Below, one piece after another: positions 25,363 through 58,501 of a DNA stretch of 64,000 nucleotides. Location: contig JAMASS010000024.1 in NCBI GenBank assembly GCA_024761205.1, positions 12,079 to 76,078 on the forward strand, read 5' to 3'. The notes beneath the pieces are model-generated. The model searched no databases and was not told the DNA's origin. It saw only the letters and a list, made by a program, of their open reading frames with translations. Both the position numbers and the translations under genes were made by a program. The stretch is from Limisphaerales bacterium. Lineage in GTDB: Bacteria; Verrucomicrobiota; Verrucomicrobiia; Limisphaerales; AAA164-E04. Numbering within the stretch: the first letter of the stretch is position 1; every line of letters begins with the position of its first letter.

Positions 25363-28068
25363 CTAAACTGCCGTGACGCGCACGGGACAGACTTTCAGTT
25401 CGGCAGTTTCGGTGACGGGATCATAACCGGATCCCGTAAGAACATTTATCGGAACGTTGCTGAAGCTGAAACTGGCAAAGACCGTGCCACGTGGGGAACG
25501 ATCAGTCACTGCGGCTTTGATACGAATGCTGCCCCGAGCGCTGCTGAGTTCGCACCAACTACCGTCTTCAAGCGCCCATTCTTGGGCATCCTCAGGATGC
25601 ACTTCGAGCGATTCCTCGGCGAGGAGGTAGTCAATGCCCTGGGCGCGTCCGGTTTGAGTTCGCGTGTGATAAGCCTGAAGTCGTCGGCCAGTGGTTAACC
25701 AAACCGGGAACTCATCGGAAATCGTTTCGGCGGGATCACGATAGTTGATGACGCGGAAGATTCCACGGCCATTTTTAAACTCACCCTCATGCAATATGGG
25801 CGTGCCGGGATGATCTTTGTCAGGGACGGGCCAGTGGTATTTGCCCTTGTCAATACGTTCCCAATCGAGCCCGGCGTAGATGGGGGAAAGGCTGCACAGC
25901 TCGTTAAAGACTTCCTGAGGAGAGCGGAAGTTGAATCCCTGGAAGCCGAGCCGCTGGCTGATTTGGCTGATGATCCACCAATCAGGTCTGGAACTACCCG
26001 CAGGGGGCACGGCCGCTCGGAGCCGCTGCACACGCCGTTCGGTATTGGTGCACACGCCGTCGGTCTCGGCCCAAGCGGTTGCGGGCAGGACAACATCGGC
26101 GAGTGCCGCCGTTTCCGTCAGGAATATATCAATGACCACCAGATGATCTAATGCCTTGAGGGCGTGCTCACAGTGCTCGCGGTCGGGATCCGAGATCAGC
26201 GTGTTCTCGCCGTCGATGAGCATGGCTTTGATATCTTTGCCGCATTGATTGAGCGCCGTCACCTTGGTGATTCCCTTCTCGGCATCCATGGCACGGCCAT
26301 AAAGCTCCTCGAATTTTGCCTGCGCCTTCGGGTCAGTGACCGGTTGAAAGCCGGGGTAATTCGCCGGAACCGCGCCTGCGTCCCCCGCGCCCTGAATATT
26401 GTTCTGCCCGCGCATCGGATTGATGCCCGCCCCCTCGCGACCGACATTGCCGGTCATAAGGGCGAGGTTGCAAAGGCTTTGTACGTTGTCGACCCCGCAG
26501 ATGTGTTCGGTAATTCCTAGGGTGTAATAAATCGCGGAACGATCCGCCTCCCCGTACCACAGGGCTGCTTGCTCAATATCTCTTGCCGAAACTTCGGTGA
26601 TCGCCGCCGCCCACTCGGGTGTGAATGTTTGGATATGTTCAAGGAATTCCGACCCTCCCGCGGTGCGATGCTCAATGAAGGCCGGATCGATCAAATTCTC
26701 ACGAGCGATGACATGCGCCATGGCCAGGAGAAGAGCAACGTCGGAGCCGACCCTGATCGGCAGATAGAGGCCGGCCATCTCGGCCAAGGCAATGCGGCGG
26801 GGATCGGCCACGATCAGGCGAGAGCCCCGTCGAAGCGCCTTCTTGATTCCAGTCGCGGCGACCGGATGGCACTCGGTCATGTTCGTGCCGATGCAGAAAA
26901 TGACATCGGGTTTCTGCATGTCGACGAGAGGATTCGACATGGCTCCCCTACCAATGGTGGCTGCCAGACCGGCAACCGTCGGGGCGTGTCAAGCACGGCT
27001 GCAGTTATCAATCTGGTGAGTGCCGAAACCCGCCCGAATAAACTTCTGCATCATATAGTCCGCTTCCGACGGCGTTCGTCCCGAAGCGACACCGTAGATG
27101 CTGCGGCGTCCGTGTTTCTCCAATACCCTGCGGAAGCCATCGGCCGCTCGATCAAGCGCTTCCTCCCAAGTCGCTTCGTGAAGCTTTCCATCGTCGCGAC
27201 GAACCATCGGTGTTTTCAGACGATCCGGGTGTTGGACAAAATCAAAAGCGAATTGGCCTTTGATACAGAGCGCCCCCTGATTTGCCGGGCCGTCCATGGC
27301 AGGTTGAACCCCGACTAGTCGATCACCCTTGGTTAAGAGATCGACCGAGCACCCCACGCCACAGTAAGGACAGACCGTTCGTGTCTTCTTGATGACACCC
27401 GGAACCGTTTCAGCGCGCATCGCTTTTTTGTCAGCTAATGCGCCAGTGGGGCAGGTTTGAACGCACTGGCCACAAAAGGTGCAGGATGATTCTTTTAGAG
27501 TGCCGGAGAATTCGGTGGTAATCTGCGTGTTGAACCCGCGTCCGCGAATGCTGATGGCGTGATCACCTTCTTGCTCGGCGCAGACTCGCACACACCGGTA
27601 GCAGGAAATGCAACGGTCATAGTCTCTTAAAATGAACGGATTCTCATCTTCGACATGAGAGCGGCCGGATTGTCGCCCCTGAAATCGTCCGGTATCAGCA
27701 CGATATTCATCAAGCAGGGTTGACAATTCTTGAGAAGCGTAACCGCGTAGCGGATCGACGGCGATATCCGGATTTTCCGAGGCCACCATTTCGAGCAACA
27801 CTTTACGATGTTTCTTGATGCTCTCGGTGACCGTGTGAACCATCATGCCGGGCATTGCTTTGGTCGTGCATGAAGCCACCGGGTTTCTAATGTCCCCGAT
27901 TTCCACCATGCAGAGGCGGCAGCCACCAAAGGCTTCCAAACGCGGATCATAGCAAAGCGTCGGAATGGTCCTTTCGTGGCGCTGAGCAATCTCGTAGATG
28001 GTCTCGCCTTCGTTGAAGGCGACGATCTCACCGTCGAGTGTGATTTTGCTGGCCTTAATACTGACCAT
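25363..28068 (-). CDS. fdhA: selenocysteine-containing formate dehydrogenase alpha subunit (NAD-linked FdhA/FdsA type), read through UGA at 26989-26991
   Basis: ORFs 26989..28068 and 25363..26940 are in the same frame and are separated only by a TGA: '..HQIDNCSRA-U-HAPTVAGLAATIGRGAMSNP..'. The N-terminus has 2Fe-2S and 4Fe-4S Cys clusters ('CISCYRCVRVC', 'CTFCGQCVQTCP', 'CPYCGVGCS'). The C-terminal part is a molybdopterin oxidoreductase. Confidence 0.85.
26959..26977 (-). promoter_or_regulatory. SECIS-like hairpin for fdhA
   Basis: On the mRNA, GGUUGCC-GGUCU-GGCAGCC (7-bp stem) starts 11 nt after the UGA. As I recall it, this is nearly the same as the E. coli fdhF SECIS apical stem-loop GGUUGCAGGUCUGCACC. 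Confidence 0.7.
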
Positions 28069-28090
28069 TGATCCTGATGAGCATATTGAT

Positions 28091-29770
28091 TTAGGACCGG
28101 TTTTGCACGTGTTTTGTGATTTGGTCCGGGAAATACTTGGCCAGACTTTTCGTGATGTTGGGCGCAGCCATCCCGAGCCCGCAGGCGCTCGCAGCCATCA
28201 TGGTCATGCCCATATCGTCCACTTCAAGATTCCAAGCCTCGAGGTCTTTGGAACCCGTCTGACCGGCGAGGTACTCTGTGAGGCGTTCGGTACCGATGCG
28301 GCAAGGGAAACATTTGCCGCAAGATTCCTCAGCGAAGAAGGCCATCGCTTCATGAGCGGCTGCGACCATGTTACGGGTGTTGTCGTAGACGATGATTCCG
28401 CCAGCGCCAAGGAAAGAACCCTTACTTCGGATGGAGGGATCGTCCAATGTGACCTCCAGATCGTCGCCTGCAAGATACCCCCCGGACAAGCCTGCCATGG
28501 TGACGGCTTGAATGGAGTTGCCATCAGGCGGACCGCCCGCCCAATCGTAGAGCAACGTTCGCAGCGGCAGGCCGAGAGGAACCTCGTAATTGCCCGACCT
28601 TCGAATGTCACCTGAAAGGCTGATCACTTTCGTCCCGGCGTGATCGTTAAGACCGAGACCTCGGTACCAATCGGCTCCTTTCAGGACGATTTGAGGCACT
28701 GCGGCGAGGGTTTCAACATTGTTCACAACCGTTGGTCGGTCGTGGTAGCCATGGGTCACGGGAAACGGCGGGCGGTTGCGGGGAAAGGGATGTTTGCCTT
28801 CGAGCGAATTCAACAGAGATCCCTCCTCGCCGCAAATGTAGGCTCCGGCGCCTCTGCGGAGGTAAAGATCAAAATGAATATCTTTTTCTCCACTATGATC
28901 GCCGAGGTATCCGGCTGAATAGGCTTCATCTATTGCCTGTTGCAGCAGGCCAAGCGTCCGAGGGTATTCGTAACGAAGATACAGGAAACCTTGGGTGGCG
29001 CCTGCGGCATAGGCGGCGATGAGCATGCCTTCAATGACGGCGTGGGGATCGTAGTCCAGGACCGCTCGATCTTTGAAGCAGCCGGGTTCACCTTCGTCGG
29101 CATTGCATACGACGGTCTTTGGTTCGCCCGGAGCTTCGGCAACCGCTTTCCATTTTGTGCCGGTGGGAAAGCCGGCGCCCCCGCGTCCGGCTAACTTGCT
29201 TTCCGAAATCAACGTGATGACGTCGCCCGGACTGTGGGTGGCAAGAATTTTGTCCATTGCGGCATAACCTCCGGAATCACGGTATCCAGAAATCGTGGCT
29301 CGATTCGGCTCTCGGATCTTGGCGAAGATACATTCTTCAACATTTCCGGGATTGGGGACCGGCAAGGGAGCCGGTCTTTCCGCCAAAGCTCCGGCTGCGT
29401 TGCCGACCAAGGCTCGATGGCCTTTTAAGACGGGAATCGGATCGTCGCAACGCCCCGCGCACGCCATGGTGCTGGCCCCGAGATCGGCAAGTGATGCCAG
29501 CAGTTGAGCACTGCCTTTGAGATAGCAAACAGGCCCCGCGCAGACACGTGGAGCTGATTGACCGGGCGGTTCTTGGGAAAGATGATGGTAAAACGTGATC
29601 GTCCCGTAGAGCTCGGCCAGGGGAATCTTCAATCCGGCAGCTATGTCCCGGATGACCGGTTCGCTGAGATGGCCGTCCCGATCATGAAAGGCATGGAGAA
29701 CCGAAAGCAATGGAGCCGGTTCCTGCTTCCACTGATCGATAATCGACTGGTTGGTTGCCTGAGTATCCAC
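28091..29770 (-). CDS. formate dehydrogenase beta subunit (fused NuoE-like and NuoF-like NAD/FMN/FeS protein)
   Basis: 559 aa. It has a NuoE-like N-terminus, 'GRGGAGFPTG', 'GAGAYICGEEGSLLNSLEG' and the 4Fe-4S motif 'ESCGKCFPCRIG'. Confidence 0.85.
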   Translation of the reverse strand: MDTQATNQSIIDQWKQEPAPLLSVLHAFHDRDGHLSEPVIRDIAAGLKIPLAELYGTITFYHHLSQEPPGQSAPRVCAGPVCYLKGSAQLLASLADLGASTMACAGRCDDPIPVLKGHRALVGNAAGALAERPAPLPVPNPGNVEECIFAKIREPNRATISGYRDSGGYAAMDKILATHSPGDVITLISESKLAGRGGAGFPTGTKWKAVAEAPGEPKTVVCNADEGEPGCFKDRAVLDYDPHAVIEGMLIAAYAAGATQGFLYLRYEYPRTLGLLQQAIDEAYSAGYLGDHSGEKDIHFDLYLRRGAGAYICGEEGSLLNSLEGKHPFPRNRPPFPVTHGYHDRPTVVNNVETLAAVPQIVLKGADWYRGLGLNDHAGTKVISLSGDIRRSGNYEVPLGLPLRTLLYDWAGGPPDGNSIQAVTMAGLSGGYLAGDDLEVTLDDPSIRSKGSFLGAGGIIVYDNTRNMVAAAHEAMAFFAEESCGKCFPCRIGTERLTEYLAGQTGSKDLEAWNLEVDDMGMTMMAASACGLGMAAPNITKSLAKYFPDQITKHVQNRS

Positions 29771-30400: not shown

Positions 30401-30899
30401 AAAATCCAAGGCTCCGGTTTTCGATCGTTTTCCGCCAGTGTTCCGTTCGTGTAGCCCGAACGTTTGATCGCTCATAAAACCTCCTCCGCGACGGCCTCCT
30501 GCCGGGTCGCATAACTCTGGCGGGTTCGTTCTCGAAGTATGCCTTCCAGTCGGGACCGGTCTGGCTTTGCACTCGTGCTGCCCATGCTTTGCCAAATGCC
30601 TTTCCACTTCGCTTCAATGCTTCGCGCCCCAAGAGATTGAACAAGTTGGCCATTGCCTGTTCTTGAGGGGTCATGGCGTCGTATTCCACGAGTTCGCTTT
30701 GCAGTCTGGCAACTTGCTCGGTGTTACCCTCTTCCTCGTAGTAGGCCATGAGTCGGAGTAGATTTTCCAGGAATACTCCTTGCGAGCGGTTAAGGTAGGC
30801 TTCGTGTTTCCGGTTTCCTTCGCGGAATGCTTTTTTCCGAGCCAGAATTTCCGGCAATATTTCCATCAGTTCAGCTTTTTGCTCCGGCGTCAGGTTGCG

Positions 30900-31330
30900 A
30901 CTTGCTCCGGCGTTAGCTCCGGAAAAAAGTAGCGGAAAGAGTCGCCGAACCTTTTAACAGCGGCTACGGCTGCTCGCTTTTTCGCAGCGGCTTCTTGCGC
31001 CGTGGGCAAGAGTGCGGGGGCGGCGGGAAAGACCGGGTGACGCATCAGATTCGGGCGAAAGCGGCGGGGTGCTTCACCTCGGCAGCGCTTCAAGGATTCG
31101 TCATTTGAGCACACGGCTCCGGGGGGCGGCGGTGCACGGACGAGGCAGCGGCTTATGCAGGATTCACCCATGAAAAGATCAATCACTCCGAATACGAGCG
31201 CGGCACGGTGCACCCGAACGGCGTGGAATCCTTCTGGCCCATGCTGAAACGGGCGTGCCGGAAGAATTGCGCCACCGCAGTCTAGTGATACCGGGCGGCT
31301 ATCGGCGTCACCAATGGTTCATGCCCGAGA
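30900..31330 (+). mobile_element. second IS1595-family transposase remnant (DDE half only, frameshifted)
   Basis: Verified plus-strand translation: 'EAAAYAGFTHEKINHSEYERGTVHPNGVESFWPMLKRACR'. Upstream are 'GKSAGAAGKTG' and 'AALQGFVI*'. The frame is broken in a G-run. Confidence 0.55.
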
Positions 31331-31599
31331 TTGGCCGCCCGAAATTGAAGGGGTATTTTGGTGTTCCAGCGGCGGTATTGATGCGAGCAGATCCGATTGG
31401 GAACCTTTCTTTCCGACGTCGGCTTGACCGGGTCTTGCCGAAGCTCTATGGAACGATCTCGCTTGCTATTGGACGATTAACCCGCCCCCCGAGGCGATGG
31501 CGAGAAATCGAGTGGACAATGCCCGCTATCCCGCAAAGACTTTTGCTGCTAAATCAAGTGTATAATCCGCACTATAAGCCGGTGCAAGGCTTTCACTGA

Positions 31600-31960
31600 C
31601 CAATCGTGCCAAATGAAATAGGTGGCCCCAGGCAATCCAGCAACTCGGGATGGCTCGGCCGGTTGCCGCGGACACCGAAATCGTTCGTCGTTTCGACCAA
31701 CTCTTTGATGAAATGATGGTGCCAGACGCGATTGATCATGACACGGGGCAGCCAGGGAATTGGATTTGCTGACGCTTCAGTCGGCGAGTTGCTTTCTGCC
31801 GCTGCCGGTTTCGGTCGGAGGAAGTAGCTGCCCGCCCAGAATGCTGAGAAAACCGCGTGTTACTTGCTCTCGCTGCGACTGTTTATTGGGGGCGCCACCA
31901 GCCTGGATATAGGTGTTTTGGGAGGGGTTTCGTCCTGAATGGCGGAGGTGATTTCGAGAT
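31600..31960 (-). pseudogene. DUF1553-domain protein fragment
   Basis: Verified translation: '[35 protein letters not shown]'. This is the hallmark DUF1553 motif of PVC bacteria. Only a short internal piece remains. Confidence 0.5.
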
Positions 31961-32180
31961 CGGGGAAGGTCTCGGCGACTTGCCTTCGTTACTCTCGAAT
32001 TCTCAGCCGATCCCCTCCACGTGATCTTTCGAGTAAGTTCGGGCGTGGTGATCGGTTCGGTTTGAAAGGCACGGTATAGAGTTTCGGAGCCCTTCGTGCT
32101 CTTTGGTATCCCATGGAATCCAGGGCTGCCCGATAGGACGCCAATATTTTATCCGGAATGATAAGTCGGAGGCTTGAAGG

Positions 32181-32414
32181 GCCTTCGGAGGCGAGGGGAA
32201 GCTGCGTCTGTCTGGAACCGAGGGCCGCAGACAGGTCCGGTAGCTCGAAGCGGCGTCCCTTTAATATGTCTATATGTCCGGCACGCTCAGGAGTTGCATG
32301 CGTAGGTAGCGTTTGCCATTGGCTCTCATGTCTCTGGCCATCGCCATCTCGAGGCCGAGGGTGGTTGCTTGGTGCTTCCTCAGTTTGTGCATGATGAATC
32401 ACAGGCCGTCCATG
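32181..32414 (-). repeat. copy 2 of the ~225-bp dispersed repeat (partner at 5925..6147)
   Basis: Translation '..FIMHKLRKHQATTLGLEMAMARDMRANGKRYLRMQLLSVPDI..LKGRRFELP'. It carries an 8-bp tandem duplication ('tatatgtc') relative to copy 1 that shifts the frame. Confidence 0.4.
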
Positions 32415-33502
32415 GCTCTAATGCACCACGCAGCTAGCGCACGACGCTAATATTGACAGTCTTGGTTCTAGTTGGGGTGCACTTGGTTGAACAGGAATTG
32501 GATGTTAAGATTTTGCGGGCGTTGGGGGTAAGTCTGCTTTATGCCCAATCCATCTCTCCGGTATCTTGGTGCTGCTCAACGTGTATCGTCCTCACGGGTT
32601 GAGGCGGGCGCATTTTCGTTGAGCCCCGGGGGTTGCCGGAATGCTGCGGCGCCAGATGTTTTGGTTCTTGCCGGTCGTCATTGCTTGTAGCGTTGTGGTC
32701 GATCTCTCCGAGGAATTGACCGATGAGTTTCATCAAACCGAGTTGGGGCGGGTGGCGCAGATTACCTTGCTGATTGCAGTCACGGCTTTCGCTTATCGAG
32801 CGATGCGGCCGGACGACGGAGTGCTTTCCGGGGGTGCTGTCGCATCACTGGGAGGATGAATGGTGCGTCTTCAGCGTCTTTGGTATTGGGGATTGACTCA
32901 ATGGCTTCCGGTTGGAGTCGGTTTGCTCTCTGCGATCAGTGACCACCATCCGGCCGTGCAGAAATGCAGGAAATCACGATTTGCCGGTGACATCGCCACG
33001 CCCTTCCCTCCTCCCTCGCTAACACTTTAGCGGTGCTCCAAAGTCGGGCTGCCTGCTGAATACAACAGTCTAAATCAAGGCATTGGGGGGGAGATTGCAA
33101 CTCTCCCCAAATGCTCAGGCAAACAGGCGGGAAACTTTTCGCGTTTACTGTAAGAGTGTTAGCGGCGGCCCGGCATCAGGCGTTGAGTAATGCCCCGTTT
33201 CCTGCTAAGCCGTTGGGAATACATGCGACTGCACGGTTGAGGCGTTCCCAGTCTCTTCTCTCTGGAGCAACTTTAACGAAATAGACCATTTCAAACATGG
33301 CAACGATCAATCAATGGTAGTAGCAGTCTGCACCTATGTTGCCGGTCATGGCTACACTATCCCTCCCGTATATCGGGATGGTTCGTGGGAATGGACGGCG
33401 GATTCCTACTATTTCCCAATCTATACCTCAATAGAGCCTTTGTGGGAGTACTGAGCCGTTAAAAACACGCGGGGCAGGCATTGCTTGGTTGGTTACGGCA
33501 GC

Positions 33503-34320
33503 ATGAAAGCCTTTTCTCGAAACGCTTTCACTCTCGTCGAATTGCTAGTGGTGATTGCTATCATCGGCATTCTCGCCGGCCTGCTGCTGTCTGCCCTCGG
33601 CAAAACCAAAGAGCTGCGCGGTGCATCCACTGTCCACTGCGTCGGCAATCTCAAACAGATCGGCACGGCGGTGTATCTTCACGCCAGCGACTATGAAGAC
33701 TGGCTGCCGCCGATCTCTATGCCTTTGCGCCCAGAGACATGTGGTCTTCGCCAAATAAGCCTAGCTACTGGGGATGGAGCGGGATTCTACGGTGATATTA
33801 TCTGGATGGGAACACGAACGTCTGGCTGTGCGCTGGTAACCGGAAACTTCGGCAGAAATTAATTCTCGGCGCGAAGACTCATCCGCCATTTGCCGCAAGG
33901 TGGTTTGCGCAATGGAATTTCAGCTATGGCATGAATATGGCAGGCACTCTTGATAACACGGGAATCTTGAAAGAGTTAATATCAAGAGGAATAGCGCAAA
34001 CTCTTGCTCAAGCCGGCGCTGATGCTCCTTATCTTCATCACCTTTATCATCGGAAGGCGAGCCAACTCCGCGCGCCCTCCGAGATAATCGCGATCGGCGA
34101 CAAGGCGGCTTATTTTGACCGCACGAGTAGCGACCACGAAAACCCTTATCAGTTCATTGATTATTTTGATACCGGCGTTGAAGAGATCAGTATTGCTTGT
34201 ATTGATAGAGAACTTTTTGAAGCAGAAACACGTCGAATAACGGTCAGTCGGCGGCATAACAAAGGGACGAACATGTTGCTGTAGGACGAGCACGCCGAGA
34301 GCAACACTTTATATAATTAG
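33503..34320 (+). pseudogene. prepilin-type N-terminal cleavage/methylation protein (DUF1559/H-X9-DG class), disrupted
   Basis: 'MKAFSRNAFTLVELLVVIAIIGILAGLLLSALGKTKE'. There is a frameshift near 33860-33930 and a TAG inside the C-terminal motif ('RRHNKGTNMLL*DEHAES'). Confidence 0.55.
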
Positions 34321-34470
34321 ACGGCGCCCCAGCCGGAAAACGCCGACGCTGGAATTACGACAACCTGTCCCCCGGGAAGACTGGACCGGCCAACGCCCGG
34401 AGAACTGGACGAACATTGCTGGCGCCGACGAAGAATAACTTGGACAACCTTGTCCCTATTCCCTTCTCGT

Positions 34471-35350
34471 ATGATGAATCGAAAGAATCTTCTGTTTATA
34501 TCAGCCGCCTTTTTATTTCTTTTGGCTGTGCTTTGGCTTGCCTTTGCCCCGCATCCCGCCGGCGCGGCGCCCTTAGCGTAAGAGCATCTCAAAGAACCGG
34601 AAATGGCGTCCGCCTATTCCCGGCTGAACGTGCCCCCGGCGAGGGAAATGCAGACGGCCAAGGAAGCACCGTTGAGGGAGCGCGAACGCCGGGCGCGGCT
34701 GCTCACCGAGTTCCCCGATGATTACTTTGACCCGACGCGCTATCTCTGCAGCGGCGATTGGGGGCTATCAAGAGAAGGTGCGGCGGCATTTTTCCATCGC
34801 CGCCTGGGCTTATTCCAATCGGGAGGGCGATCCCGGTTTGCGCCAAGTGATGACCCTGCTCCTGGAGAACGGCTACGGCATTGAAGATTACGCCAAGGTA
34901 ATGCCTCCGTTGGCGCGGTATTCGTCGGAAGTTGCGGCGTTGCGGGAGCGGTATAGGAAAGTCGGATTTTATACGGAAGCTGAAATAGACGTGTCGCTTG
35001 AGGAGCGGAGGGCATTTCACCGGCAAGAAGCGCATTTGAAGAGTTTGGAGTTTGTTCTTTCGATGTATGGAATCACGGATGAGCGATTGATCGGCGAGTT
35101 GTCGTCGGTGGACCTTGGCATCATTCGGGAAGGGGACGGGGCGATTGGCGAGGGGAAGGTGGAAACGCTGTGGGGCGACCGTTTGCTGGGCAAGGCGGAT
35201 TGGCTGGATGCGGATTTTCAGGCGGCGCGGACGTGTTATCGGGGCGCGCCTCGGGGTAGCGCCGAAGAACGTTTGACGGATTGGCACAAACAACGCCGCA
35301 GGGAAAGAGAGCAGCGGCAGGCAAGACGGTTGGCGCCCTCCGTAGGATAA
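34471..35350 (+). pseudogene. secreted hypothetical protein with an in-frame TAA and a frameshift
   Basis: Signal peptide 'MMNRKNLLFISAAFLFLLAVLWLAFA', then a TAA at 34579 in frame with ORF 34603. A frame change near 34740 leads into ORF 34718..35350. Confidence 0.35.
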
Positions 35351-35599
35351 GGTCAAACACATGAAGCCGTGAAGAGGCTGGAGGGAGTGCCTGCGTGACT
35401 GTCTTGAGCGTTGCGTTCAACCGAAAGCCAAGAAAACGGCAGTCCGGGGCTGGCCCTAGTTGCCAAGTTGTGTGAACAGGATGCTGTTCGGATCGTTAGT
35501 GGTCTGTTGACGAGCGGTCGAGGAATTCACGGAGAGTCCAGCCTCAAACGTATCCGAATGACCATTGACATTTAGGGCAAGTCCTTTACTAGTGGCCCT

Positions 35600-36451
35600 A
35601 TGGGTGGTCCTGTGGAAGTGGAAGCAGCATTCTCTGGACACGCGGAATTTGCACCTCATTTCAAGCCGCGAAAGACGATCTCCTATGTTGTCTTTGACTT
35701 TGATGGCACGCTGTCCTTGATCCGCCAGGGCTGGCCTGAAGTTATGCTGCTCATGTTTGTCGAGATGTTGCCCCGAAAGGATGGTGTCACCGTGGAGAGC
35801 GATGAGCAGATGCTCCTCGACGATATCATGAAACTGAACGGCAAGCAGACGGTCTATCAAATGATGCAGCTGGCTGAACGGATCAAAGAGCGCGGAGGCG
35901 AGCCGAAGGAGCCGCTGTGGTACAAGCATGAATATCACCGCCGGCTCGATGAGCGAATTCAATCACGGCATCGGCGCATCGAGGAAGGTGCCTGCGTCGA
36001 GGACGAGTTTTTGGTCTTTGGTGCCCGGTACTCGCTCGAAAAATTGAAGTCGCTCGGTTTGCCGATGTGTTTGGCTAGTGGAACGGATGAGCCGTTTGTG
36101 AAGAGGGAAGCGGCACTTTTGGGAATCGCCGCCTATTTTGATGGGCGCATCTATGGTGCGTTGGATGATCACAAGTCTTTCTCCAAGAAGATATTGATTG
36201 AACGAATCCTGCGCGAGAACAACATTCCTGGAGAATCGCTCCTCTCCTTTGGCGACGGTTACGTTGAGATCGAAAACACCAAAGAGGTCGGAGGATTGGC
36301 GATCGCCGTTGCGAGTAATGAGGCCAATAACGGTTCCGGTAAGGTTGATGAGTGGAAACGGAAGCAACTGCTCGGTGTTGGTGCGGACGTGGTGATCTCC
36401 GATTATCGTGATATCGATCCGTTGATCGATGTGGTTTGGGAACGCGCGTAA
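35600..36451 (+). CDS. HAD-superfamily hydrolase (capped, phosphatase-like)
   Basis: Motif I 'VVFDFDGTL', 'ASGT', and the late acidic motif 'FGDGYVEI'. 283 aa. Confidence 0.8.
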   Translation: MGGPVEVEAAFSGHAEFAPHFKPRKTISYVVFDFDGTLSLIRQGWPEVMLLMFVEMLPRKDGVTVESDEQMLLDDIMKLNGKQTVYQMMQLAERIKERGGEPKEPLWYKHEYHRRLDERIQSRHRRIEEGACVEDEFLVFGARYSLEKLKSLGLPMCLASGTDEPFVKREAALLGIAAYFDGRIYGALDDHKSFSKKILIERILRENNIPGESLLSFGDGYVEIENTKEVGGLAIAVASNEANNGSGKVDEWKRKQLLGVGADVVISDYRDIDPLIDVVWERA

Positions 36452-36467
36452 ACTTTTCGAACGGACC

Positions 36468-37580
36468 ATGCCCAGTTATCCAGAACCTTTGGATCTCTCG
36501 CGATTGCGTGTTTATCCGCTGGATCAGCGAAAGAGCTTGACCACGGCAGATGAGATACTCATCGACCCGGACTCACAACCGGCACCGATTGATGAGCGAA
36601 TCGTTGGCATTGTTGGACACTGTGCCCGGAAGATCCTTTTGGCCCGTCAGCAAGGTGCCACCGTGATGCTCGCGTACGGGGCGCATCTTTTGCGCAATGG
36701 GGCGGCAGCGATTCTGGAAAAAATGATGGAGCGCGGCTGGTTGACTCATCTGGCTACAAACGGCGCCGGAACAATCCACGATTGGGAGTATGCGTTTCTG
36801 GGGCGCTCTACTGAAAGCGTCCGCGACAACGTCGCCACCGGTACTTTTGGAACTTGGGATGAGACCGGCCGCTACTTGCACTTAGCTATGATGGTCGGGG
36901 GACTAGAGGAAATGGGCTATGGTCAGTCTCTGGGGCGTTTTATTCATGAGGACGGCGTTGATGCCCCGCATGCTGAAGCCCTGACGATGGCGATAGAGGC
37001 AAATCCCCAAGATCCTCAGACAGCGGCTCGGGCTGATTTGCTGCAGGCAATGATCAAACACGCCATTCCATCGGGGCGTATGACGATCCGGCACCAGTGG
37101 AAGCAGGCCTCTATTCTGAGCCAGGCTTTTCGGCTTCAGGTTCCGGTATCCATACATCCAGGAATCGGTTACGACATCATTTCGAACCATCCCATCTTTA
37201 ACGGAGCGGTGATTGGACGAGCGGCCACCATCGACTTTCGGCTGTTTTCGCGTGCGGTAGAAGGCCTTGAGGGCGGTGTAATGCTGTCAGTCGGTTCCGC
37301 TATCATGGCGCCCCAGGTCTTTGAGAAAAGCTTGAGCTGTGTCAACAACCTGCGGTTGCAGAACGGTCGACAGATTGTGCATGACCACGAGATTTACGTG
37401 GTCGATATCCAAGACGGGGGGGGCTGGGATTGGTCCCAGGGCGAACCGCCCAAAACTAATCCGGCCTACTACCTGCGATTCTGTAAGAGCTTTTCACGCA
37501 TGGGTGGTAAGATGCATTATGCCCAGTGCGACAATCTCGCCTTCATGCATCATCTTTATCGAGCGCTGCTTGCCGGATGA
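36468..37580 (+). CDS. deoxyhypusine-synthase-like (DHS-fold) protein of unknown function
   Basis: 'VMLAYGAHLLRNGAAAILEKMMERGWLTHLATNGAGTIHDWE' and 'VPVSIHPGIGYDII...GGVMLSVGSAIMAPQVFEK' follow the DHS topology pattern. The assignment is from memory of the family and has not been searched. Confidence 0.55.
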   Translation: MPSYPEPLDLSRLRVYPLDQRKSLTTADEILIDPDSQPAPIDERIVGIVGHCARKILLARQQGATVMLAYGAHLLRNGAAAILEKMMERGWLTHLATNGAGTIHDWEYAFLGRSTESVRDNVATGTFGTWDETGRYLHLAMMVGGLEEMGYGQSLGRFIHEDGVDAPHAEALTMAIEANPQDPQTAARADLLQAMIKHAIPSGRMTIRHQWKQASILSQAFRLQVPVSIHPGIGYDIISNHPIFNGAVIGRAATIDFRLFSRAVEGLEGGVMLSVGSAIMAPQVFEKSLSCVNNLRLQNGRQIVHDHEIYVVDIQDGGGWDWSQGEPPKTNPAYYLRFCKSFSRMGGKMHYAQCDNLAFMHHLYRALLAG

Positions 37581-51685: not shown

Positions 51686-53194
51686 ATGAATCAAGAGATC
51701 AGGGATTACAGTCGAGTGCTCTTGGGTGAGGAGTCGTTTGATGGCTTGTCGGAAAAGCAGTTTGAGAAACGGATTTGCAAGCTGCGAACAGGCCTAATAA
51801 AAGTGCAGCGTAAGTTGCAGAATGCGCCCAATCCGATAATCATTATTATCGCTGGCGTTGACGGCGCCGGGAAAGGACAGGCGATTCAACTGCTAAACGA
51901 GTGGCTGGATCCAAGAGATCTAAGCACACATAGCTTTTGGGATCTCTCGGATGAGGCGTTGCAGCGGCCGCATTACTGGCGGTACTGGGATGCGCTCCCT
52001 CGACGAGGCAAACTGGCCATTTGGTTTGGCGGTTGGTATTCAGTGCCGCTGATCGAGAGCGTTCTCAAACGCCTCACGAGCGCCGAACTTGATGAGTGCC
52101 TCACGGATATTCAAAAGCAGGAGGTTGCCTTGACGATGGATGGGGCTGTGATTCTCAAGTTCTGGTTTCATCTTACGAAGTCAGAGCAGGAGCAACGATT
52201 GCGCCATTTGTATGAGAACCCGAAGGAACATTGGCGGGCAATGAGTGATGATTGGAAGCATCACAGCCTTTACGAAAGGTTTGAGTCTTTTGCGACCATT
52301 GTTTTGAGTCGGACCCATCACGAGACGAGGCCCTGGTTTTTTGTCCCCTCTGCCGATCCCCAAAGGCGCGATCTTGTCTTTGCAACGCTGCTGTCCCGGG
52401 CGCTGGAAAAGATGGTGATCGATGGTGCGGATCGGTCTGATAGTAGGGCTTCGCCAATGGTTCGCTATCAGCCCTCCCCGTATCGGGCATTGGCAGAGGT
52501 GGACTTGGATCAAAGGTTGTCTCGGGAGGATTACGACTTGCAACTGGTTGAAGCGCAGTCGCGTCTGCACCATTTATTCTGGGCGGCCTATGAAAAGAAA
52601 GTTTCGACCATCCTGGTCTCTGAGGGTTGGGATGCTGCTGGAAAGGGCGGGGCCATTCGACGCGTCACGGCGACAATTGATCCCCGTTTATTTCGAATCG
52701 TACAGGTCGGTCCGCCGTCCTTGGAAGAACATGCCTACCACTATTTATGGCGGTTTTGGCGGGACTTACCTAGGGATGGGCGGATTACGATCTTTGATCG
52801 CTCCTGGTACGGTCGAGTTCTGGTTGAGCGCATCGAGGGTTTTGCCACGGAATCGGAGTGGCAACGGGCTTATGCCGAGATCAATGACTTTGAGAAGGAA
52901 ATCTCGCAACACGGGACACTGCTTTTGAAGTTTTGGATCCATATTAGTAAAGATAAGCAATTAAACCGTTTTCGTAGTCGGGAAGAGATTGCTCTGAAAC
53001 GGCACAAGATCACGAAGGAAGACTGGCGAAATCGGGAGCGATGGGATGATTACGAGGTCGCTGTCAATGACATGGTGGCTTATACGAATTCCAGTCACGC
53101 GCCTTGGAAATTGGTTGCAGGGAACAACAAACGATTTGCTAGGATCCAGATGATTGAGACGATATGCGAGCGGTTGAAAGCAGCCGTGGGCTGA
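51686..53194 (+). CDS. ppk2: two-domain polyphosphate kinase 2 (polyphosphate:AMP/ADP phosphotransferase type)
   Basis: Two PPK2 modules, each with a Walker-A-like site ('AGVDGAGKG' and 'EGWDAAGKGG') and 'DRSWY'. The ORF is open from a TTG at 51599; the ATG at 51686 is preferred. Confidence 0.85.
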   Translation: MNQEIRDYSRVLLGEESFDGLSEKQFEKRICKLRTGLIKVQRKLQNAPNPIIIIIAGVDGAGKGQAIQLLNEWLDPRDLSTHSFWDLSDEALQRPHYWRYWDALPRRGKLAIWFGGWYSVPLIESVLKRLTSAELDECLTDIQKQEVALTMDGAVILKFWFHLTKSEQEQRLRHLYENPKEHWRAMSDDWKHHSLYERFESFATIVLSRTHHETRPWFFVPSADPQRRDLVFATLLSRALEKMVIDGADRSDSRASPMVRYQPSPYRALAEVDLDQRLSREDYDLQLVEAQSRLHHLFWAAYEKKVSTILVSEGWDAAGKGGAIRRVTATIDPRLFRIVQVGPPSLEEHAYHYLWRFWRDLPRDGRITIFDRSWYGRVLVERIEGFATESEWQRAYAEINDFEKEISQHGTLLLKFWIHISKDKQLNRFRSREEIALKRHKITKEDWRNRERWDDYEVAVNDMVAYTNSSHAPWKLVAGNNKRFARIQMIETICERLKAAVG

Positions 53195-53199
53195 GGCGG

Positions 53200-53850
53200 A
53201 CGGTTCCGATGGCACTTGGTGATGCCGACAGGAAAGGCGCCCTGAGGTTGCGGTTAGTGATGCTGTTCGTAGTCGCGTCGCTTGCGCCGGCTCCGTCTGC
53301 GATGGCTTTTCAAAGAGCCTCGCATTTAGTAGGTGCGATACAACTTATTTTAGATCAACATATGCGCAAACGATCTGAAGCGGTCCCTTTAGTTCCTCGA
53401 CTAGCGCGCTCCGTAAGCGTTCAGCCCACAGGGTGTCAAAGCGGTTGTGTAGTCGATTATGCCAAATGCTAAACCGTGGTTTGATATCCTTTAAGGAAAC
53501 AGGAAGTATCCCTCATTTTGCCAGGTATTTATTACGAAGGTTCTCCGGGGAGATGTCCGTCACGATCAATGAGTTCAGTCACGAGCTTGGTTCTTTCGTG
53601 TTTCTTGCCGTGGCGAGGTGTTATTCGACGAACAAGTTTTATATCGGTGGAGTTGTTGTCAGCGGGTATTTTTACAAGCAGATGAAAATGATTGGACATG
53701 ATGCAGTAGATCAGGACTTCCATACAAAAATCAGTGTAAAGCCGTATTAGCGATCGGAAATGTTCTTTTCTATACCGCCGAGGAGAAACTCGCCTCCGAT
53801 TACTCGGGAGACATAGTGATAAGACCACATCTCGTCCCGTTGGTTTGATC
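53200..53850 (-). mobile_element. IS200-like/REP-associated tyrosine transposase (RAYT-like) remnant
   Basis: 'YHYVSRVIGGEF' (frame a), 'VLIYCIMSNHFHLLVKIP' (frame b) and the verified 'LKDIKPRFSIWHNRLHNRFDTLWAERLRSALVEE...AYVDLK*' (frame c). Confidence 0.55.
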
Positions 53851-54031
53851 TGTGCCATCCTTATGAGGAGTATAATTATGAAAAAAGTCAACAGACCATT
53901 AACCTGTCCCTGTTTTAGAATCGCGTACAGTGGGAGATTCTTGGTGCGGTTTTTTTGTGAGAGTCTTAGGATGTCTTTCGGGCAGAGGTTGCCGAGCGTT
54001 GTTCTCGGGTTGGAGGGGTTGACCACAAGAA

Positions 54032-54541
54032 GTGGATGAATGGATTATGGATTGCGAAATTGAAATACGGTGCCTGTTTGTAGCGGCTGGGCATCAGTTT
54101 GTCGGAAGGCATGGTAAAGAGCCGCTGACTTATGTGATGGAAGCGCGCGAGACGATCGAGTGTGTTGCCGGAAAAGGGATCATGGGTGACCGTTTTTTTG
54201 ACTATAAGCCGAATTATAAGGGGCAGCTGACGTTTTTTTCTGAGGAGGTCTATCTGAAATTGAAGCGACAACTTTCAGTGGAGATGAAGTCTTCTGCGGT
54301 TTTTCGGCGGAATGTGCTCGTTTCCGGGATTGACTTGAATCCGTTGATTGGGAAGCGCTTTGGGTTGGGTGAGGTTGAGTTCGAAGGCGTGGAGGAGGCG
54401 AGTCCGTGTTATTGGATGGATCGCGCTTTCGGTGAAGGGGCGGCGGCGGCTCTTCGTGGGCAGGGAGGGCTCCGTGTTCGGATTTTGAGCGATGGTAAGC
54501 TGTCTCGGGGCGTTCAGAGATTGTGTGTGTTCGATGTATAA
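54032..54541 (+). CDS. MOSC-domain protein
   Basis: 'RRNVLVSGIDLNPLIGKRFGLGEVEFEGVEEASPCYWM' and 'GGLRVRILSDGKLSRG'. The ATG at 54047 is an alternative start. Confidence 0.8.
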   Translation: MDEWIMDCEIEIRCLFVAAGHQFVGRHGKEPLTYVMEARETIECVAGKGIMGDRFFDYKPNYKGQLTFFSEEVYLKLKRQLSVEMKSSAVFRRNVLVSGIDLNPLIGKRFGLGEVEFEGVEEASPCYWMDRAFGEGAAAALRGQGGLRVRILSDGKLSRGVQRLCVFDV

Positions 54542-54547
54542 AAGTAA

Positions 54548-54571
54548 AGAGCAAGCTCGAAAGCTTGCTCT
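54548..54571. terminator. bidirectional terminator hairpin between convergent genes
   Basis: Perfect 10-bp stem agagcaagct/agcttgctct with loop cgaa. It lies between the MOSC stop (54541) and the peroxiredoxin stop (54607). Confidence 0.6.
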
Positions 54572-54606
54572 TCTGTCGATTTCTCGAATTTTGCTGGTCG
54601 ATTGTC

Positions 54607-55140
54607 CTATCTTTTGCTGATTCCGAGATCTTTCAGTTTTCCGTAGATATCGGCGCCGTGTGAGCCTGCTTTGACTGACTTGTCAACGTGGAGAATTTTT
54701 CCTTTTTTGCTGATGTAGTAAGTCCAGCGAAAGGGGAAGGGATGACTATCGTTGACGACTCCAAAGGCCTTCGCGGTTTCCTTACCGGGATCACTTAGGA
54801 TAGGGTAGTCCAACTCCAGGGATTCAGCGAATCGACGGTTGGTGCTGGCATCATCACAGCTAGCCGTAAAGTACGCGACATCGAACTCACGAAGCTTCTT
54901 GCCACTCTCACGGAGTGACTTGCATTCGCGCGTTCAACCTCCGGTAAAGGCCTTCGGATACCAGGCGATGACGATGGCTTGCTTTCCAGCAAAATCAGAT
55001 AGTTTGTAGGTTTTGCCGTCGCTTCCAGGTAGAGAAAAGTCTGGGACTTTATCCCCCGCCTTGAGCTCGGCATGCGTTGGGGATGCGAATCCGGCGAGCC
55101 CTATTAAAAGGGCCGCCATCCGAATGATTGTCTTCTTCAT
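54607..55140 (-). CDS. candidate selenocysteine-containing periplasmic peroxiredoxin (AhpC/TSA-Bcp-like), read through UGA at 54934-54936
   Basis: ORFs 54934..55140 and 54607..54813 share one frame. I translated the gap codon by codon and the TGA is the only interruption. The product is '[99 protein letters not shown]...'. The U falls on the Cys of the universal PxxxTxxC motif. Confidence 0.65.
54901..54919 (-). promoter_or_regulatory. SECIS-like hairpin for the peroxiredoxin
   Basis: On the mRNA, GUCACUC-CGUGA-GAGUGGC (7 bp including one G-U, with GU in the loop) begins 14 nt after the UGA. Confidence 0.5.
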
Positions 55141-55404
55141 GGTTCTCTTCAGTTCATGAGTTCGAGAAATCGAACCGACTATGGGAAAGTAAGTTTTATC
55201 AGTGGAATGTCCAAGGGGAATCTTGAAGACTCAATGGTCTTTGGTAAGGAAGATAGCGGACCAAGAGTTAGTCGAAACGATTCGTTGAGGTCGCCTTGAT
55301 TGCTCAGTGGTTTCATCGACTGTCACGATTCAGTCCGAGGAGGTAGTTTCATCACGCACTCTCCAGACAGTTTCCTAACGGTGTTCGACCGGTTTCGTTG
55401 GGAT

Positions 55405-56690
55405 TCAAACTAGTTGCGGAAAGTTGAGCGGCAAGTTTGCAAGGAGATTACTTGACCGTTCTGACTTCATAGAAGCGGTGTCGGGACCTGTGGATAGGGC
55501 GGTGAGCTCGATGGTGGTGCCAGTGCCGGTCACTTGGTTCACCGCCCGGAGCTCAGTCACCTGCTGTGACGTCGGGTATAGAGTTGATAGGTCGCTCCAT
55601 TGGTGTGAGAGAAATTTGGAGAATGGAAAAGGGACCGCCGGAGGGGGCGGTTGGATTTGTTCCGGCTGCTTCTGCTTTTGCATTAGTCATTCCGTCCTCA
55701 TCAGGGTCGGCATCAGGAGCTGCGTCAGGTCCGGTAAAGGGATCGAAATGTTCACAGTGAAAGCTATCGGAGAGGCTATCGTAGTTAATATCCAGAGCTC
55801 TCTGGGTCTGACTTTGAAGAAACCGTTGGCAGAGGCGATGTCTTCGCCCCGCCTAACGATGAATGATCGCAGATCTGGGGTGGCATTTTCAGCAATGGAA
55901 GCCGTTTGAAAGATGTACAGATACCCGTAAAAACTGCGTTGAAACTTGAGCAGGATTCAGGGTAAAGCATCTCCAGTGACGAGGTGCTTTACGCCGGAAG
56001 TGGGAAGGCTTGATCTGAAAAACGTCAAGGGCGACATCTTGAGTACCTTGCGTGATGCCCCGTGGATTGGAGCTAGTTCCAAGGAATCCGGGTTTGAGAT
56101 CTGCCGGGCGAATTTGTGCGATACGAAACGGAGGTAGCGTCAGAATGACTGCGGAATTGACGGTCGCCGTGCCGTCAAGGGCAAGTTCGACGGAGGCGCT
56201 CATCGTGGGTCTAAAGTTGACCTCGGTTTGTTCGAAACGTGCAAAGAGGATGCCGCGATCCTTCACCCAGAAGGAAGAGGCCGCTGCTGGATCGAGGGGT
56301 GCGACTCAAACATAGTAATTTCCCGCGGGAGTTCCTTGAATCTCGTAGAAGCCTTGAGGATGGGTGTCGGTTTCTTCAAGGGAAACCGGTTCTGGCAATG
56401 AGTTCAGCAGACTCGTTTCGAGAAAGACTGCCCACCCGGGATGCCTTCGCCATTGGCGGTGACGGAGACCTCCACACGGGTGAGGTTGCTCGCGAACTGG
56501 GAATCGCCATAGTTTGATTGCTAATTTCGTCCAGCGGTAGCCCGGTTTCCAACTCGGGCTCGAAGCCTTCTCGGGCGAATATAATCGCGCGCGCCTATCG
56601 GGGAATGCTGCAGGCCAATCGCGTGTCCGAACAATGGAGGGCGGAGGTAATTTGGTTTTTAATGCAATCATAGGCATGGCCATGTGAGGG
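55405..56690 (-). pseudogene. large secreted protein remnant (CarboxypepD_reg-like and Asp-rich 'DxDxDG..N..E..GTNP' segments)
   Basis: 'THPQGFYEIQGTPAGNYYV*VAPLD' carries an in-frame TGA. 'PDADPDEDGMTNAKAEAAGTNP' and other pieces lie in different frames. Confidence 0.3.
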
Positions 56691-57900
56691 CTGTTACGGA
56701 TCATTGTGTTTGCGGTCCATGATTCGTGACATGGTGCGTACCGAGGCCGGGTGGTTGCGTGGCTAGATTGTCGGTTTCCGCAGGATCGGAGACCAAATTG
56801 TAGAGTTCGATTTCCGCTTGAAAATCAGTGCTGAAGTTTCGTTTGACGGCCTTCTAGTTTTCTTGCGGTACGAAGATCTTGCCGCCGCATTCGTAGAATT
56901 CCCAATAGCGATAAGGATGGGTGATTTGTGCAGTCGTATTACCGATCGGTGCTAGCGAAATGCCATCAATGGATGCGGAGGGCGAGTTCCGGCCAATTCC
57001 ACAAAGGTGGGGAAGATGTCCTGAAATCCGGAGATGAGGTCACTGTTTTTTCTCGCCGGGAAATGTTTGGGCCAGCGGACGATGAAGGGGCCGCGGATAC
57101 CTCTCTCGTAGATATCCCGCTTCATGCCCTTGAGGGGCCGTTGTCGTTGCTGAAGAAAATCTCGGTTTTCTCTTCGAGATACAATTGCTTGAGCAAGGAC
57201 AGGATGGTGCCGAGGTGGTCATCGATGATTCGGATCATTTGGGCGAATCTTTTTCTTGGATGAGCTAGTCTTGGTTTTCAAATTTGCCAAGGTTCGGGAC
57301 GTGCATTCCGTTGCGGGCGATACGAGTCTCTCGGCCTCCTTGGTTGTTCGCATGCGGGATGTTCAGGGTGTAGAACAGGAAGAAGGGCTCTTCTCAGTTG
57401 GTTCGAATGAAGTCTAGTGCCTGATTAAAAATCAGTTGTGGCGTGTAATCGCCTCCGATCTCCGAGATTTCTGCATCTTCTTAAGCTGAGTTTTCTTTGG
57501 CCTTCCATTTGGGATGTATAATCGATTTCTTAGTGGCTCTTTCTTGCCGTTCCCAACGAGAAACTCCGGATAAAATTGTGAGCTTGAAACAGGTTGATGT
57601 AGCCGCAAAACGCGTCAAGGCCGGGCCGGGAATGCAAGTCGAGCCATGCTAGGTGCCTGATCGTGTTGAGCACGGAGGTCAATGTAGCCGTAGTTGAGCG
57701 TTCAGACAAACGTCTCGGGCATTTTCTGCCCGAGCGGGAGCACACTAGTCTGTAACGGGTGTCGATCATCTTCCTTCTGTAGGAACGAGTGCTGGATGCT
57801 GCTTGTCGAATGGGTTCTTTACAATCGCAGGGATCACGAATCTTTTTGGGTTGTTCCAGTGCTCCAATTCTCTTTTTGGGGCGAGAATTGAGTCGCGAAA
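56690..57900 (-). pseudogene. arylsulfatase remnant
   Basis: Verified pieces: '[15 protein letters not shown]', '[19 protein letters not shown]', 'FFLFYTLNIPHA' and 'ELYNLVSDPAETDNLA'. They are spread over all three frames with several stops. Confidence 0.6.
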
Positions 57901-57905
57901 TCGAA

Positions 57906-58420
57906 TTAGCTTCTGCGTTGGTCAAGGGTGTGTTCGAGTTTGCTGTGAAGCTCCTCAAAGGAACCGTTACTGAAGATGCAGACGGCGTTTTCAGGACATC
58001 CCTCCTTTGCTAGGAACGTGCGGATTAGGTCCCCGGTATCGAGACATTCGCAGTTCTTTCCTTGGAGGCGTATGTCGATCGCGAGGAATGATCCACTCGC
58101 CATTTGGTGAAGCGGGCCCCTGCAGCCGAAATTATGCGGCGTGCCGCCGATGAGGAAACTTGGGTTGAGTCCAACGGATTCGAAGACCCATGCCATCAGG
58201 GAAGTTGTGGTGCTCTTGCCGTGTGTGCGCTAACACCGAGGTCGGGGCCATGAGCCAGATTTTTTCGGCGTGGGGAGAGCGTATCGCGATGTCTTGCGTC
58301 TCGAGGAAGGTAGCCATTGGTGAATAGGCTCCCTGATCAAAGCCGGTTACCTTGCAGCTCTTTGATTTGAGAGCTGCGGTGCAGGACACCATTGCAGTGT
58401 CACAGATGCCGCTAAAGTGG
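57906..58420 (-). pseudogene. Mpl/Mur-ligase (murein peptide ligase-like) remnant with a large internal deletion
   Basis: 'KVTGFDQGAYSPMATFLETQDIAI', then the verified P-loop 'THGKSTTTSLMAWVFESVGLNPSFLIGG'. This is joined almost directly to a C-terminal-like 'AVCIFSNGSFEELHSKLEHTL'. Confidence 0.5.
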
Positions 58421-58501
58421 ATGGATTTTAGTATTCTCGATCACGAGGTCGTGGCGGACGGAGGCTTACAGGCTAGGCAGCACGATTTTGCGCTTGCGGG
58501 T

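Follow-up and report, generated by a model that had tools for sequence, protein, structure and literature searches.

The 64,000-nucleotide stretch of contig JAMASS010000024.1 analysed here (hereafter the window), from an uncultured bacterium, contains at 54607-55140 on the minus strand what is in all probability an intact gene for an exported selenocysteine (Sec) peroxiredoxin (Prx) of the BCP/PrxQ type, i.e. a selenoprotein gene and not a pseudogene. The Sec reading rests mainly on the conservation of an in-frame UGA at the peroxidatic position together with purifying selection on the sequence that follows it. A preliminary description of this DNA had proposed such a gene; the UGA proves to be retained in relatives, the region downstream is constrained and a hairpin past the UGA is conserved. 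That Sec is in fact inserted at codon 69 is what we infer from these sequence comparisons.

A complete peroxiredoxin frame with one internal UGA

The reverse complement of 54607-55140 translates into 177 codons followed by TAG, with LGISKR at the C-terminus, and its sole internal stop is the TGA at 54934-54936; a plus-strand reading was rejected because it contains stops throughout. The features of the gene, all on the minus strand, are as follows:

54607-55140: complete coding sequence of the predicted Sec-peroxiredoxin precursor, with the UGA as codon 69 (translation, Pfam match, alignment of 24 homologues)
55069-55140: predicted signal peptide, codons 1-24, with a likely cleavage before ELKAGD (hydropathy and inspection by eye)
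54934-54936: UGA read as predicted selenocysteine U69, the peroxidatic residue of P62-x3-T66-x2-U69 (Cys in 24/24 homologues; TGA in at least 120 other genomes)
54922-54924: TGC codon of Cys73, candidate resolving cysteine in a U-x3-C arrangement (invariant in 24/24 homologues)
54901-54919: putative Sec insertion sequence (SECIS) core, a 7-bp stem GUCACUC/GAGUGGC with the apical loop CGUGA (54908-54912), starting 14 nt past the UGA (fold, conservation, compensatory pairs, codon bias)
54882-54936: extended stem enclosing the core hairpin and formed by UGAAC with GUUCG, some 50 nt further downstream (minimum-free-energy structure)
54546-54573: intrinsic-terminator-like hairpin with a 12-bp stem and a T-run, 34 nt past the TAG (consensus pattern match only)

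The translated protein matches the Pfam AhpC-TSA domain (PF00578) over residues 29-151, corresponding to profile positions 2-123 of 124 (E 6.5e-31, with 107 bits where the cut-off is 26), and also the Pfam Redoxin domain (E 3.7e-22). Protein similarity searches recovered 3352 relatives at E <= 1e-10, of which the best 120 are all about 175-200 residues long and 59-70% identical to the window protein; these are mostly unnamed, and the few that bear names belong chiefly to Planctomycetota and in one case to Verrucomicrobiales. When 24 full-length homologues, collected solely on protein similarity, are aligned with the window protein, Cys occupies the TGA column in 24/24 (FTGGCTxEC, where the window protein has FTGG-U), and the BCP/PrxQ active-site positions P62, T66, U/C69 and R138 are invariant. 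Downstream of the TGA the window protein retains every invariant residue, including C73, the catalytic R138 and the YPILSD block. The preliminary description had claimed one 177-codon frame broken by this TGA alone, a complete AhpC/TSA-Bcp-type fold sequence, a UGA placed on the Cys of the PxxxTxxC motif and a resolving-type Cys four residues further on. The frame is as described, on the minus strand; near-full coverage of the AhpC-TSA profile supports the AhpC/TSA part; and the alignment agrees on both residues, with the resolving role of C73 standing as a prediction.

The DNA of the gene is 100% identical in contigs of two independent Logan assemblies, which derive from two separate sequencing runs. 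A consensus scan for terminators yielded two sites, against 1.9 expected by chance: the one listed above and a second upstream of the UGA, with none between the UGA and the TAG. As a pattern match, this placement fits a transcript spanning all 177 codons.

Conservation of the UGA and purifying selection downstream of it

One genome per species was scanned with a DNA pattern for P-K-A-F-T-x-G-TGA-T-x-E-C, for which we estimate about 0.02 chance matches in 1.2e12 positions. The pattern matched at least 120 species-representative loci. By the submitters' labels, counted by hand, the 120 loci listed are distributed as follows:

Acidobacteriota: 65
Gammaproteobacteria and other Pseudomonadota: 21
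Planctomycetota: 15
Verrucomicrobiota: 8
other labels: 11

Wherever no contig end interrupts the locus, the frame stays open for 101-118 codons past the TGA, reaches the usual C-terminus with its conserved motifs and contains no other internal stop; the exceptions are L088, whose frame is cut by the end of the stored locus, and L017, which has lost its usual stop (see below). The nearest relative among the matches listed is a Sec form from a metagenome-assembled genome (MAG) of an uncultured member of the Verrucomicrobiota (L098), with 86% amino acid identity over the mature part; for the best Cys forms the identity to the window protein is 66-71%. L098 keeps both the TGA and the synteny with the window (Prx-MOSC-PPK2) at about 71% nucleotide identity. 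Within the gene the two are 75% identical in nucleotides and synonymous sites are saturated, while downstream of the UGA the nonsynonymous divergence (dN) is 0.097 and its ratio to synonymous divergence (dN/dS) about 0.03. A truncating stop is incompatible with so much purifying selection on the downstream half. UGA-bearing orthologues and the dN/dS of the region past the UGA had been put forward in the preliminary description as the comparisons by which to judge the gene, and both favour a functional frame.

Two of the genomes with Sec-form loci depart from the usual pattern in other ways. In an Acidobacteriota MAG (L017, CAWFSB010000003.1) the usual stop after LGVARR is lacking and the frame runs on for about 250 extra codons of low-complexity, Arg/Gly-rich sequence. 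A chromosome labelled Candidatus Marinacidobacterales (OZ253507.1) carries two Sec-form copies (L057 and L062), about 8.5 Mb apart of a total of 10.2 Mb.

A SECIS-like hairpin past the UGA

The 7-bp hairpin that had been noted 14 nt past the UGA is present at 54919-54901. The 61-nt segment around the UGA folds at -25.1 kcal/mol (z = -4.2), with 0/200 shuffled sequences equally stable, and the element displays the hallmarks by which bacterial SECIS elements were recognized earlier, namely a stem-loop that directly follows the UGA and carries a small, G-containing apical loop (PMC1088965). Conservation of the hairpin among orthologues, another of the comparisons previously suggested, is extensive: all 7 pairs of the core stem form in 92/118 distinct Sec-form sequences and at least 6 in 103/118, and the loop is CGUGA in 83 and CGUGC in 21 of the 118. 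Two-sided compensatory types occur at 4 of the 7 pairs (G-C/A-U/C-G, G-C/A-U, C-G/U-A and C-G/G-C/U-A), and compensation persists where the amino acids change, e.g. from E-S-G to D-S-D with CUG/CAG. In register, 93.8% of the cells are paired, as against 29-67% after a shift of the 3' partner by 1-3 nt. Support for the extended stem is weaker than that for the core hairpin, its outer 5 pairs being complete in 46/118 Sec forms and 2/108 Cys forms.

As the hairpin sits inside the coding sequence (K-S-L-R-E-S-G), the same genes were used as their own control. In 75 genes encoding x-S-[LF]-R-[EAD]-S-G, the hairpin codons were compared with those in the rest of the same genes:

loop Arg as CGU: 68/81 at the hairpin, 10% elsewhere in the same genes, p 3e-42
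Leu as CUC: 68/74 at the hairpin, 41% elsewhere in the same genes, p 1e-18
second Ser as AGY: all cases at the hairpin, about 45% elsewhere in the same genes

The fixation of the unpaired loop codon CGU is unexplained by pairing and is consistent with a sequence-specific contact, as would be expected for SelB.

Probable Sec decoding in the organism

The window also encodes a Sec-type formate dehydrogenase, the features of which are:

25363-28068, minus strand: Sec-type formate dehydrogenase alpha subunit FdhA, 901 codons when counted from the first ATG, with TGA at 26989-26991 in the context NCSRA*HAPTVAG (TIGR01591)
26959-26977, minus strand: local hairpin GGUUGCC-GGUCU-GGCAGCC after this UGA
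28091-29770, minus strand: NuoF-like FdhB with 2Fe-2S, FMN-binding and 4Fe-4S domains (domain matches), preceding FdhA

FdhA scores 750.8 bits against the TIGR01591 equivalog cut-off of 666, and together with FdhB (25363-29770) constitutes an NAD-linked formate dehydrogenase pair. We take its GGUCU-loop hairpin to be a classical fdhF-type SECIS; the overall fold of this region is no stabler than that of shuffled sequences (z -0.46), so that its informative part is the local hairpin only. Since a Sec-type fdhA with its SECIS is present, the organism probably decodes Sec, a trait deduced here from fdhA. The preliminary description had likewise reported the Sec-type FdhA, which its UGA, TIGR01591 match and hairpin bear out, and had taken it to imply the decoding machinery, which fdhA supports.

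In-frame TGAs backed by homology number only two in the window, those of the fdhA and Prx genes, and both fall on known Sec/Cys catalytic columns; five other long frames in the window with a single TGA have no Pfam match. One of the five, a mimic of a split gene, was rejected at 35459-36475, where two 168-codon minus-strand open reading frames (ORFs) share one frame with a TGA between them and the real gene lies opposite:

35600-36451, plus strand: HAD-family hydrolase (PF00702, 1.7e-11)

Cysteine forms and alternative explanations

Among four close Cys-form orthologues, all 7 pairs are kept in two, whose loop is CGUGA or CGUGC; 6 pairs form in a third and 3 in the fourth. The two perfect cases are:

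L243, 1198-1260: Cys form (TGC at the catalytic codon) with a perfect 7-bp hairpin at the SECIS position, loop CGUGA or CGUGC
L244, 1204-1266: Cys form (TGC at the catalytic codon) with a perfect 7-bp hairpin at the SECIS position, loop CGUGA or CGUGC

These might possibly be "fossil" SECIS elements left after a change from Sec to Cys, or else pre-existing hairpins that ease the change from Cys to Sec.

Several points weigh against the interpretation of the window gene as a selenoprotein gene. Because close Cys orthologues partly retain it, the hairpin accompanies Sec but is not diagnostic of it within the clade; structure alone is no proof, and a rule by which the presence of the hairpin means Sec was dropped. 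Comparison with a distant Cys control set drawn from metagenome contigs, in which only 2/108 sequences form 7 pairs, is confounded in that this set belongs mostly to another subclade (peptide KSLAENG), and for this reason the codon-usage control and the four close Cys orthologues were adopted. Rfam, searched at gathering and at permissive thresholds, returned no SECIS family for the hairpin, only chance snoRNA matches at E > 5. Among the annotated ORFs and in a tRNA search of the 64-kb window there is no selA, selB, selD or tRNA-Sec, a tRNA-Gly being the only tRNA gene found. Finally, the decayed genes in the window raise the prior for a nonsense mutation.

Of the competing explanations, the one that survives best, though we judge it very unlikely, is that the conserved peptide K-S-L-R-E-S-G produces the hairpin incidentally, or that the hairpin has some other function in the mRNA, any read-through of the UGA being independent of it. 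The peptide does favour pairing, as its Ser/Leu codons face Glu/Ser/Gly codons, and this explanation can also draw on the distant Cys forms, which reach 5-6 of the 7 pairs, on the perfect hairpin of the two close Cys forms and on the lack of a matching Rfam SECIS model. It does not account for hairpin codons that depart strongly from the usage of the same genes elsewhere, for a fixed CGU in the unpaired loop, for register-specific pairing or for compensatory pairs in the stem even where amino acids change.

About as improbable is a pseudogene, in which a single step from TGC or TGT to TGA at the active-site Cys would have left a 68-residue fragment in a genome accumulating broken genes. The TGA is shared with L098 across saturated synonymous divergence, with a dN/dS of about 0.03 past it, and TGA occupies exactly this codon in at least 120 other species, with no other internal stop in the uncut loci. 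All invariant residues past the TGA are retained, and the terminator-like site lies at the end of the full frame, with none between the UGA and the TAG. These data stand against the ease of the mutation, one substitution sufficing to turn Cys into a stop, and against the precedent of a sulfatase gene split over three frames and a DUF1553/PSD1 remnant in the same window. The caveat about decayed genes in the preliminary description was thus a fair one, but it is overridden by the comparative data.

An assembly or sequencing error, or reassignment of UGA to another amino acid in this organism, has nothing specific in its favour and a negligible probability, given the identical DNA in contigs of two separate sequencing runs, the location of the only two homology-supported in-frame TGAs on Sec/Cys catalytic columns, the absence of Pfam matches in the five other single-TGA frames, and the use of TGA to end ordinary genes of the window (e.g. 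the ORFs at 709-1353 and 1366-2310), which argues against global reassignment.

Predicted export and a proposed mechanism

Signal peptides were judged heuristically, by eye and by hydropathy (Kyte-Doolittle means over 10 residues). The leader of the selenoprotein precursor shows a basic n-region, a hydrophobic core (best 10-mer mean 2.33) and small residues at -3/-1, with T-H-A just ahead of ELKxGD, the conserved beginning of the mature domain; both export and cleavage at this point are predictions from these features. The leader thus described has the n/h/c layout of a signal peptide, as reported in the preliminary description. Its view that a signal-peptide-bearing Sec-peroxiredoxin would be unusual is not upheld: in 119/119 Sec forms with enough upstream sequence to be scored the leader 10-mer reaches at least 1.6 (median 2.44), and a periplasmic BCP/PrxQ peroxiredoxin, PprX of Caulobacter, is known experimentally (see below). 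The 24 aligned Cys homologues have, by eye, a similar N-terminal leader.

We propose that the UGA at codon 69 is translated as Sec when SelB-GTP-Sec-tRNA(Sec) is brought in, as happens in other selenoprotein genes of bacteria, by the hairpin 14 nt downstream with its 7-bp stem and CGUGA loop. The 177-residue precursor would then be exported via its N-terminal signal peptide and cleaved after THA. Once in the cell envelope, Sec69, which Thr66 and Arg138 would activate within the PxxxTxxU pocket, would reduce H2O2 or organic hydroperoxides and be converted to a selenenic acid, which Cys73, as the likely resolving residue, would turn into a selenenylsulfide. By analogy with Caulobacter PprX, regeneration may be carried out by an envelope thioredoxin-like reductase fed by a membrane transporter of the DsbD/CcdA/ScsB type. 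The ORF annotation of the neighbourhood shows MOSC, PPK2, a DUF255 thioredoxin-domain protein and GatB next to the Prx gene, and no gene for ScsB, TlpA or DsbD.

Interchange of Sec and Cys

In the clade as a whole Sec and Cys forms interleave, and a rough neighbor-joining tree of 346 sequences requires at least 25 Sec/Cys changes under Fitch parsimony, in agreement with earlier reports of repeated Cys-to-Sec events in Prx (PMC1794560). A tentative and rather doubtful extension is that the exported Prx clade acts as a reversible Sec/Cys switch, in which interchange of UGA and UGY toggles the enzyme between a seleno- and a thiol-peroxidase in accordance with selenium supply or oxidative load; it would represent an unreported envelope-located selenoenzyme common in Acidobacteriota, Planctomycetota-Verrucomicrobiota and marine Gammaproteobacteria. 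Such a switch would explain the roughly 25 or more changes among the 346 sequences. As the hairpin is written into K-S-L-R-E-S-G and persists in Cys forms, the toggle would require one base at the catalytic codon.

On the contig of the Cys form L243, tandem AhpC-TSA/Redoxin genes are found at 172-804 and 1001-1531, the product of the first (210 residues) being encoded directly upstream of the 176-residue Cys-form orthologue.

Other features of the window

A sulfatase pseudogene lies at about 56900-57420 on the minus strand, with its motifs distributed over all three minus-strand frames; the stitched fragments match PF00884 at 6.4e-12. Two independent short-read assemblies contain the same sequence, so that the breaks cannot be put down to a fault of one of them. 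The surrounding region (55141-58501) contains no ORF with Pfam support. A second region, 30867-34702, comprises 3.8 kb devoid of long ORFs and includes a DUF1553/PSD1 remnant, in which 43 residues cover profile positions 15-57 of 244 and the frame is broken by stops, as well as a gene fragment with a prepilin-type N-terminal methylation motif (AFTLVELLVVIAIIGILAGLL). DUF1553/PSD1 and prepilin-type proteins are typical of Planctomycetota and Verrucomicrobiota.

Between PPK2 and MOSC, a 164-codon ORF at 53532-54026 (minus strand) has no Pfam match at E <= 1e-5, and contains the sequence SNHFHLLV, which looks like a motif of the REP (repetitive extragenic palindrome)-associated or IS200-type tyrosine transposases. 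L098 aligns to the window at 54089-55116 and 52154-53172, on both sides of this ORF and not across it, for which reason the ORF may be an insertion.

Implications for annotation

What might be called two short ORFs or a pseudogene is better annotated as one intact selenoprotein gene, and the organism as a probable Sec user. In one assembly that was checked the gene is called as a 68-residue fragment. As, in addition, the window protein stays below the cut-off of every NCBIfam model, mis-annotation of clade members as truncated proteins may be frequent. The occurrence of a signal peptide throughout the clade suggests that peroxides are countered in the cell envelope by a selenium-dependent defence, a subject undiscussed in the papers that catalogued the family; the main text of the Sargasso Sea (PMC1088965) and Global Ocean Sampling (GOS; PMC2398784) papers does not use the term "signal peptide" at all. 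Small points that may be new are the universal signal peptide of the clade, the survival of the hairpin in Cys forms along with frequent Sec/Cys switching, and the combination of a 68-residue fragment call with the lack of any curated model whose cut-off is reached. No new principle is involved, since there is established precedent for Sec-peroxiredoxins, for bacterial SECIS elements and for periplasmic BCP-type peroxiredoxins.

Comparison with known systems

Sec-containing peroxiredoxins with a TxxU motif (PF00578/COG1225) are a long-established selenoprotein family (PMC1088965, PMC2398784, PMC1794560, PMC13188914). The family, Prx (TxxU), is represented by 43 genes in the Sargasso Sea, as the selenoprotein family ranking second in abundance (PMC1088965), by 253 genes in GOS, as the sixth (PMC2398784), and by 12 in early genomes (PMC1794560), and it is listed in a 2026 review (PMC13188914). 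The supplements of the Sargasso Sea and GOS papers print sequences of the very clade discussed here as "Peroxiredoxin": in entries so labelled, the GOS dataset has 21 occurrences of KAFTGGU and 22 of AFTGGUT, and the Sargasso dataset 3 of each. A core of the form (x)ECK(S/A)LR(E/D)S is common to the window protein, AACY01494158, AACY01800057, AACY01089194 and 21 GOS reads. The clade was thus already catalogued in ocean metagenomes in 2005 and 2008, so that the family and even the subclade are known; in this light neither the preliminary description's "novel" for the selenoprotein nor its "rare" for Sec-peroxiredoxins is supported. The Prx (TxxU) of Zhang and Gladyshev has the same domain, the same Sec position in PxxxTxxU and a SECIS stem-loop just past the UGA, and there is no fundamental difference from the window gene, which comes from an uncultured bacterium and whose closest syntenic relative is labelled Verrucomicrobiota.

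A comparable element is the E. coli fdhF-type SECIS, which we take to be a stem-loop shortly past the UGA whose small apical loop includes G and U, much as in the Prx element; relative to it, the Prx element has the loop CGUGA and no evident bulged U.

We presume that PrxU of Eubacterium acidaminophilum lacks a signal peptide. Like the window protein it has Sec at the peroxidatic position, but it belongs to a different Prx subfamily (NF040737, peroxi_PrxU, profile length 233), and membership was rejected for the window protein, which scores 39 bits against a cut-off of 270. Among the other NCBIfam models, the Bcp equivalog was rejected at 83.5 bits against 140 (NF006960) and PrxQ at 69.3 against 260 (NF053650), pointing to a relative and not an equivalog. 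The Prx-like thiol:disulfide oxidoreductases, defined by UxxC (PMC1088965), were also rejected, as the window motif T-G-G-U followed by T-R-E-C amounts to U-x3-C.

The best matches in the PDB are BCP-type peroxiredoxins, and the closest by sequence is Bcp1 of Sulfolobus solfataricus (3drn; E 3.5e-22 over residues 2-137 of the mature protein). Cytoplasmic BCPs such as this protein and E. coli Bcp share the active-site motif of the window protein, from which they differ in that the latter is predicted to be exported and to use Sec; moreover, its second Cys lies 4 residues after the catalytic residue (U-T-R-E-C), as against 5 in the alignment with Bcp1.

PprX of Caulobacter crescentus (CC1673) is a periplasmic, signal-sequence-bearing thiol-dependent peroxidase of the BCP/PrxQ subfamily that is reduced via TlpA and ScsB (PMC3322552). 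It has in common with the window protein the signal sequence, the subfamily, the PxxxTxx(C/U) site and the conserved Arg, and differs in using Cys where the latter is predicted to use Sec. By this analogy, PprX is likely to be the best experimental model for the window protein after its export.

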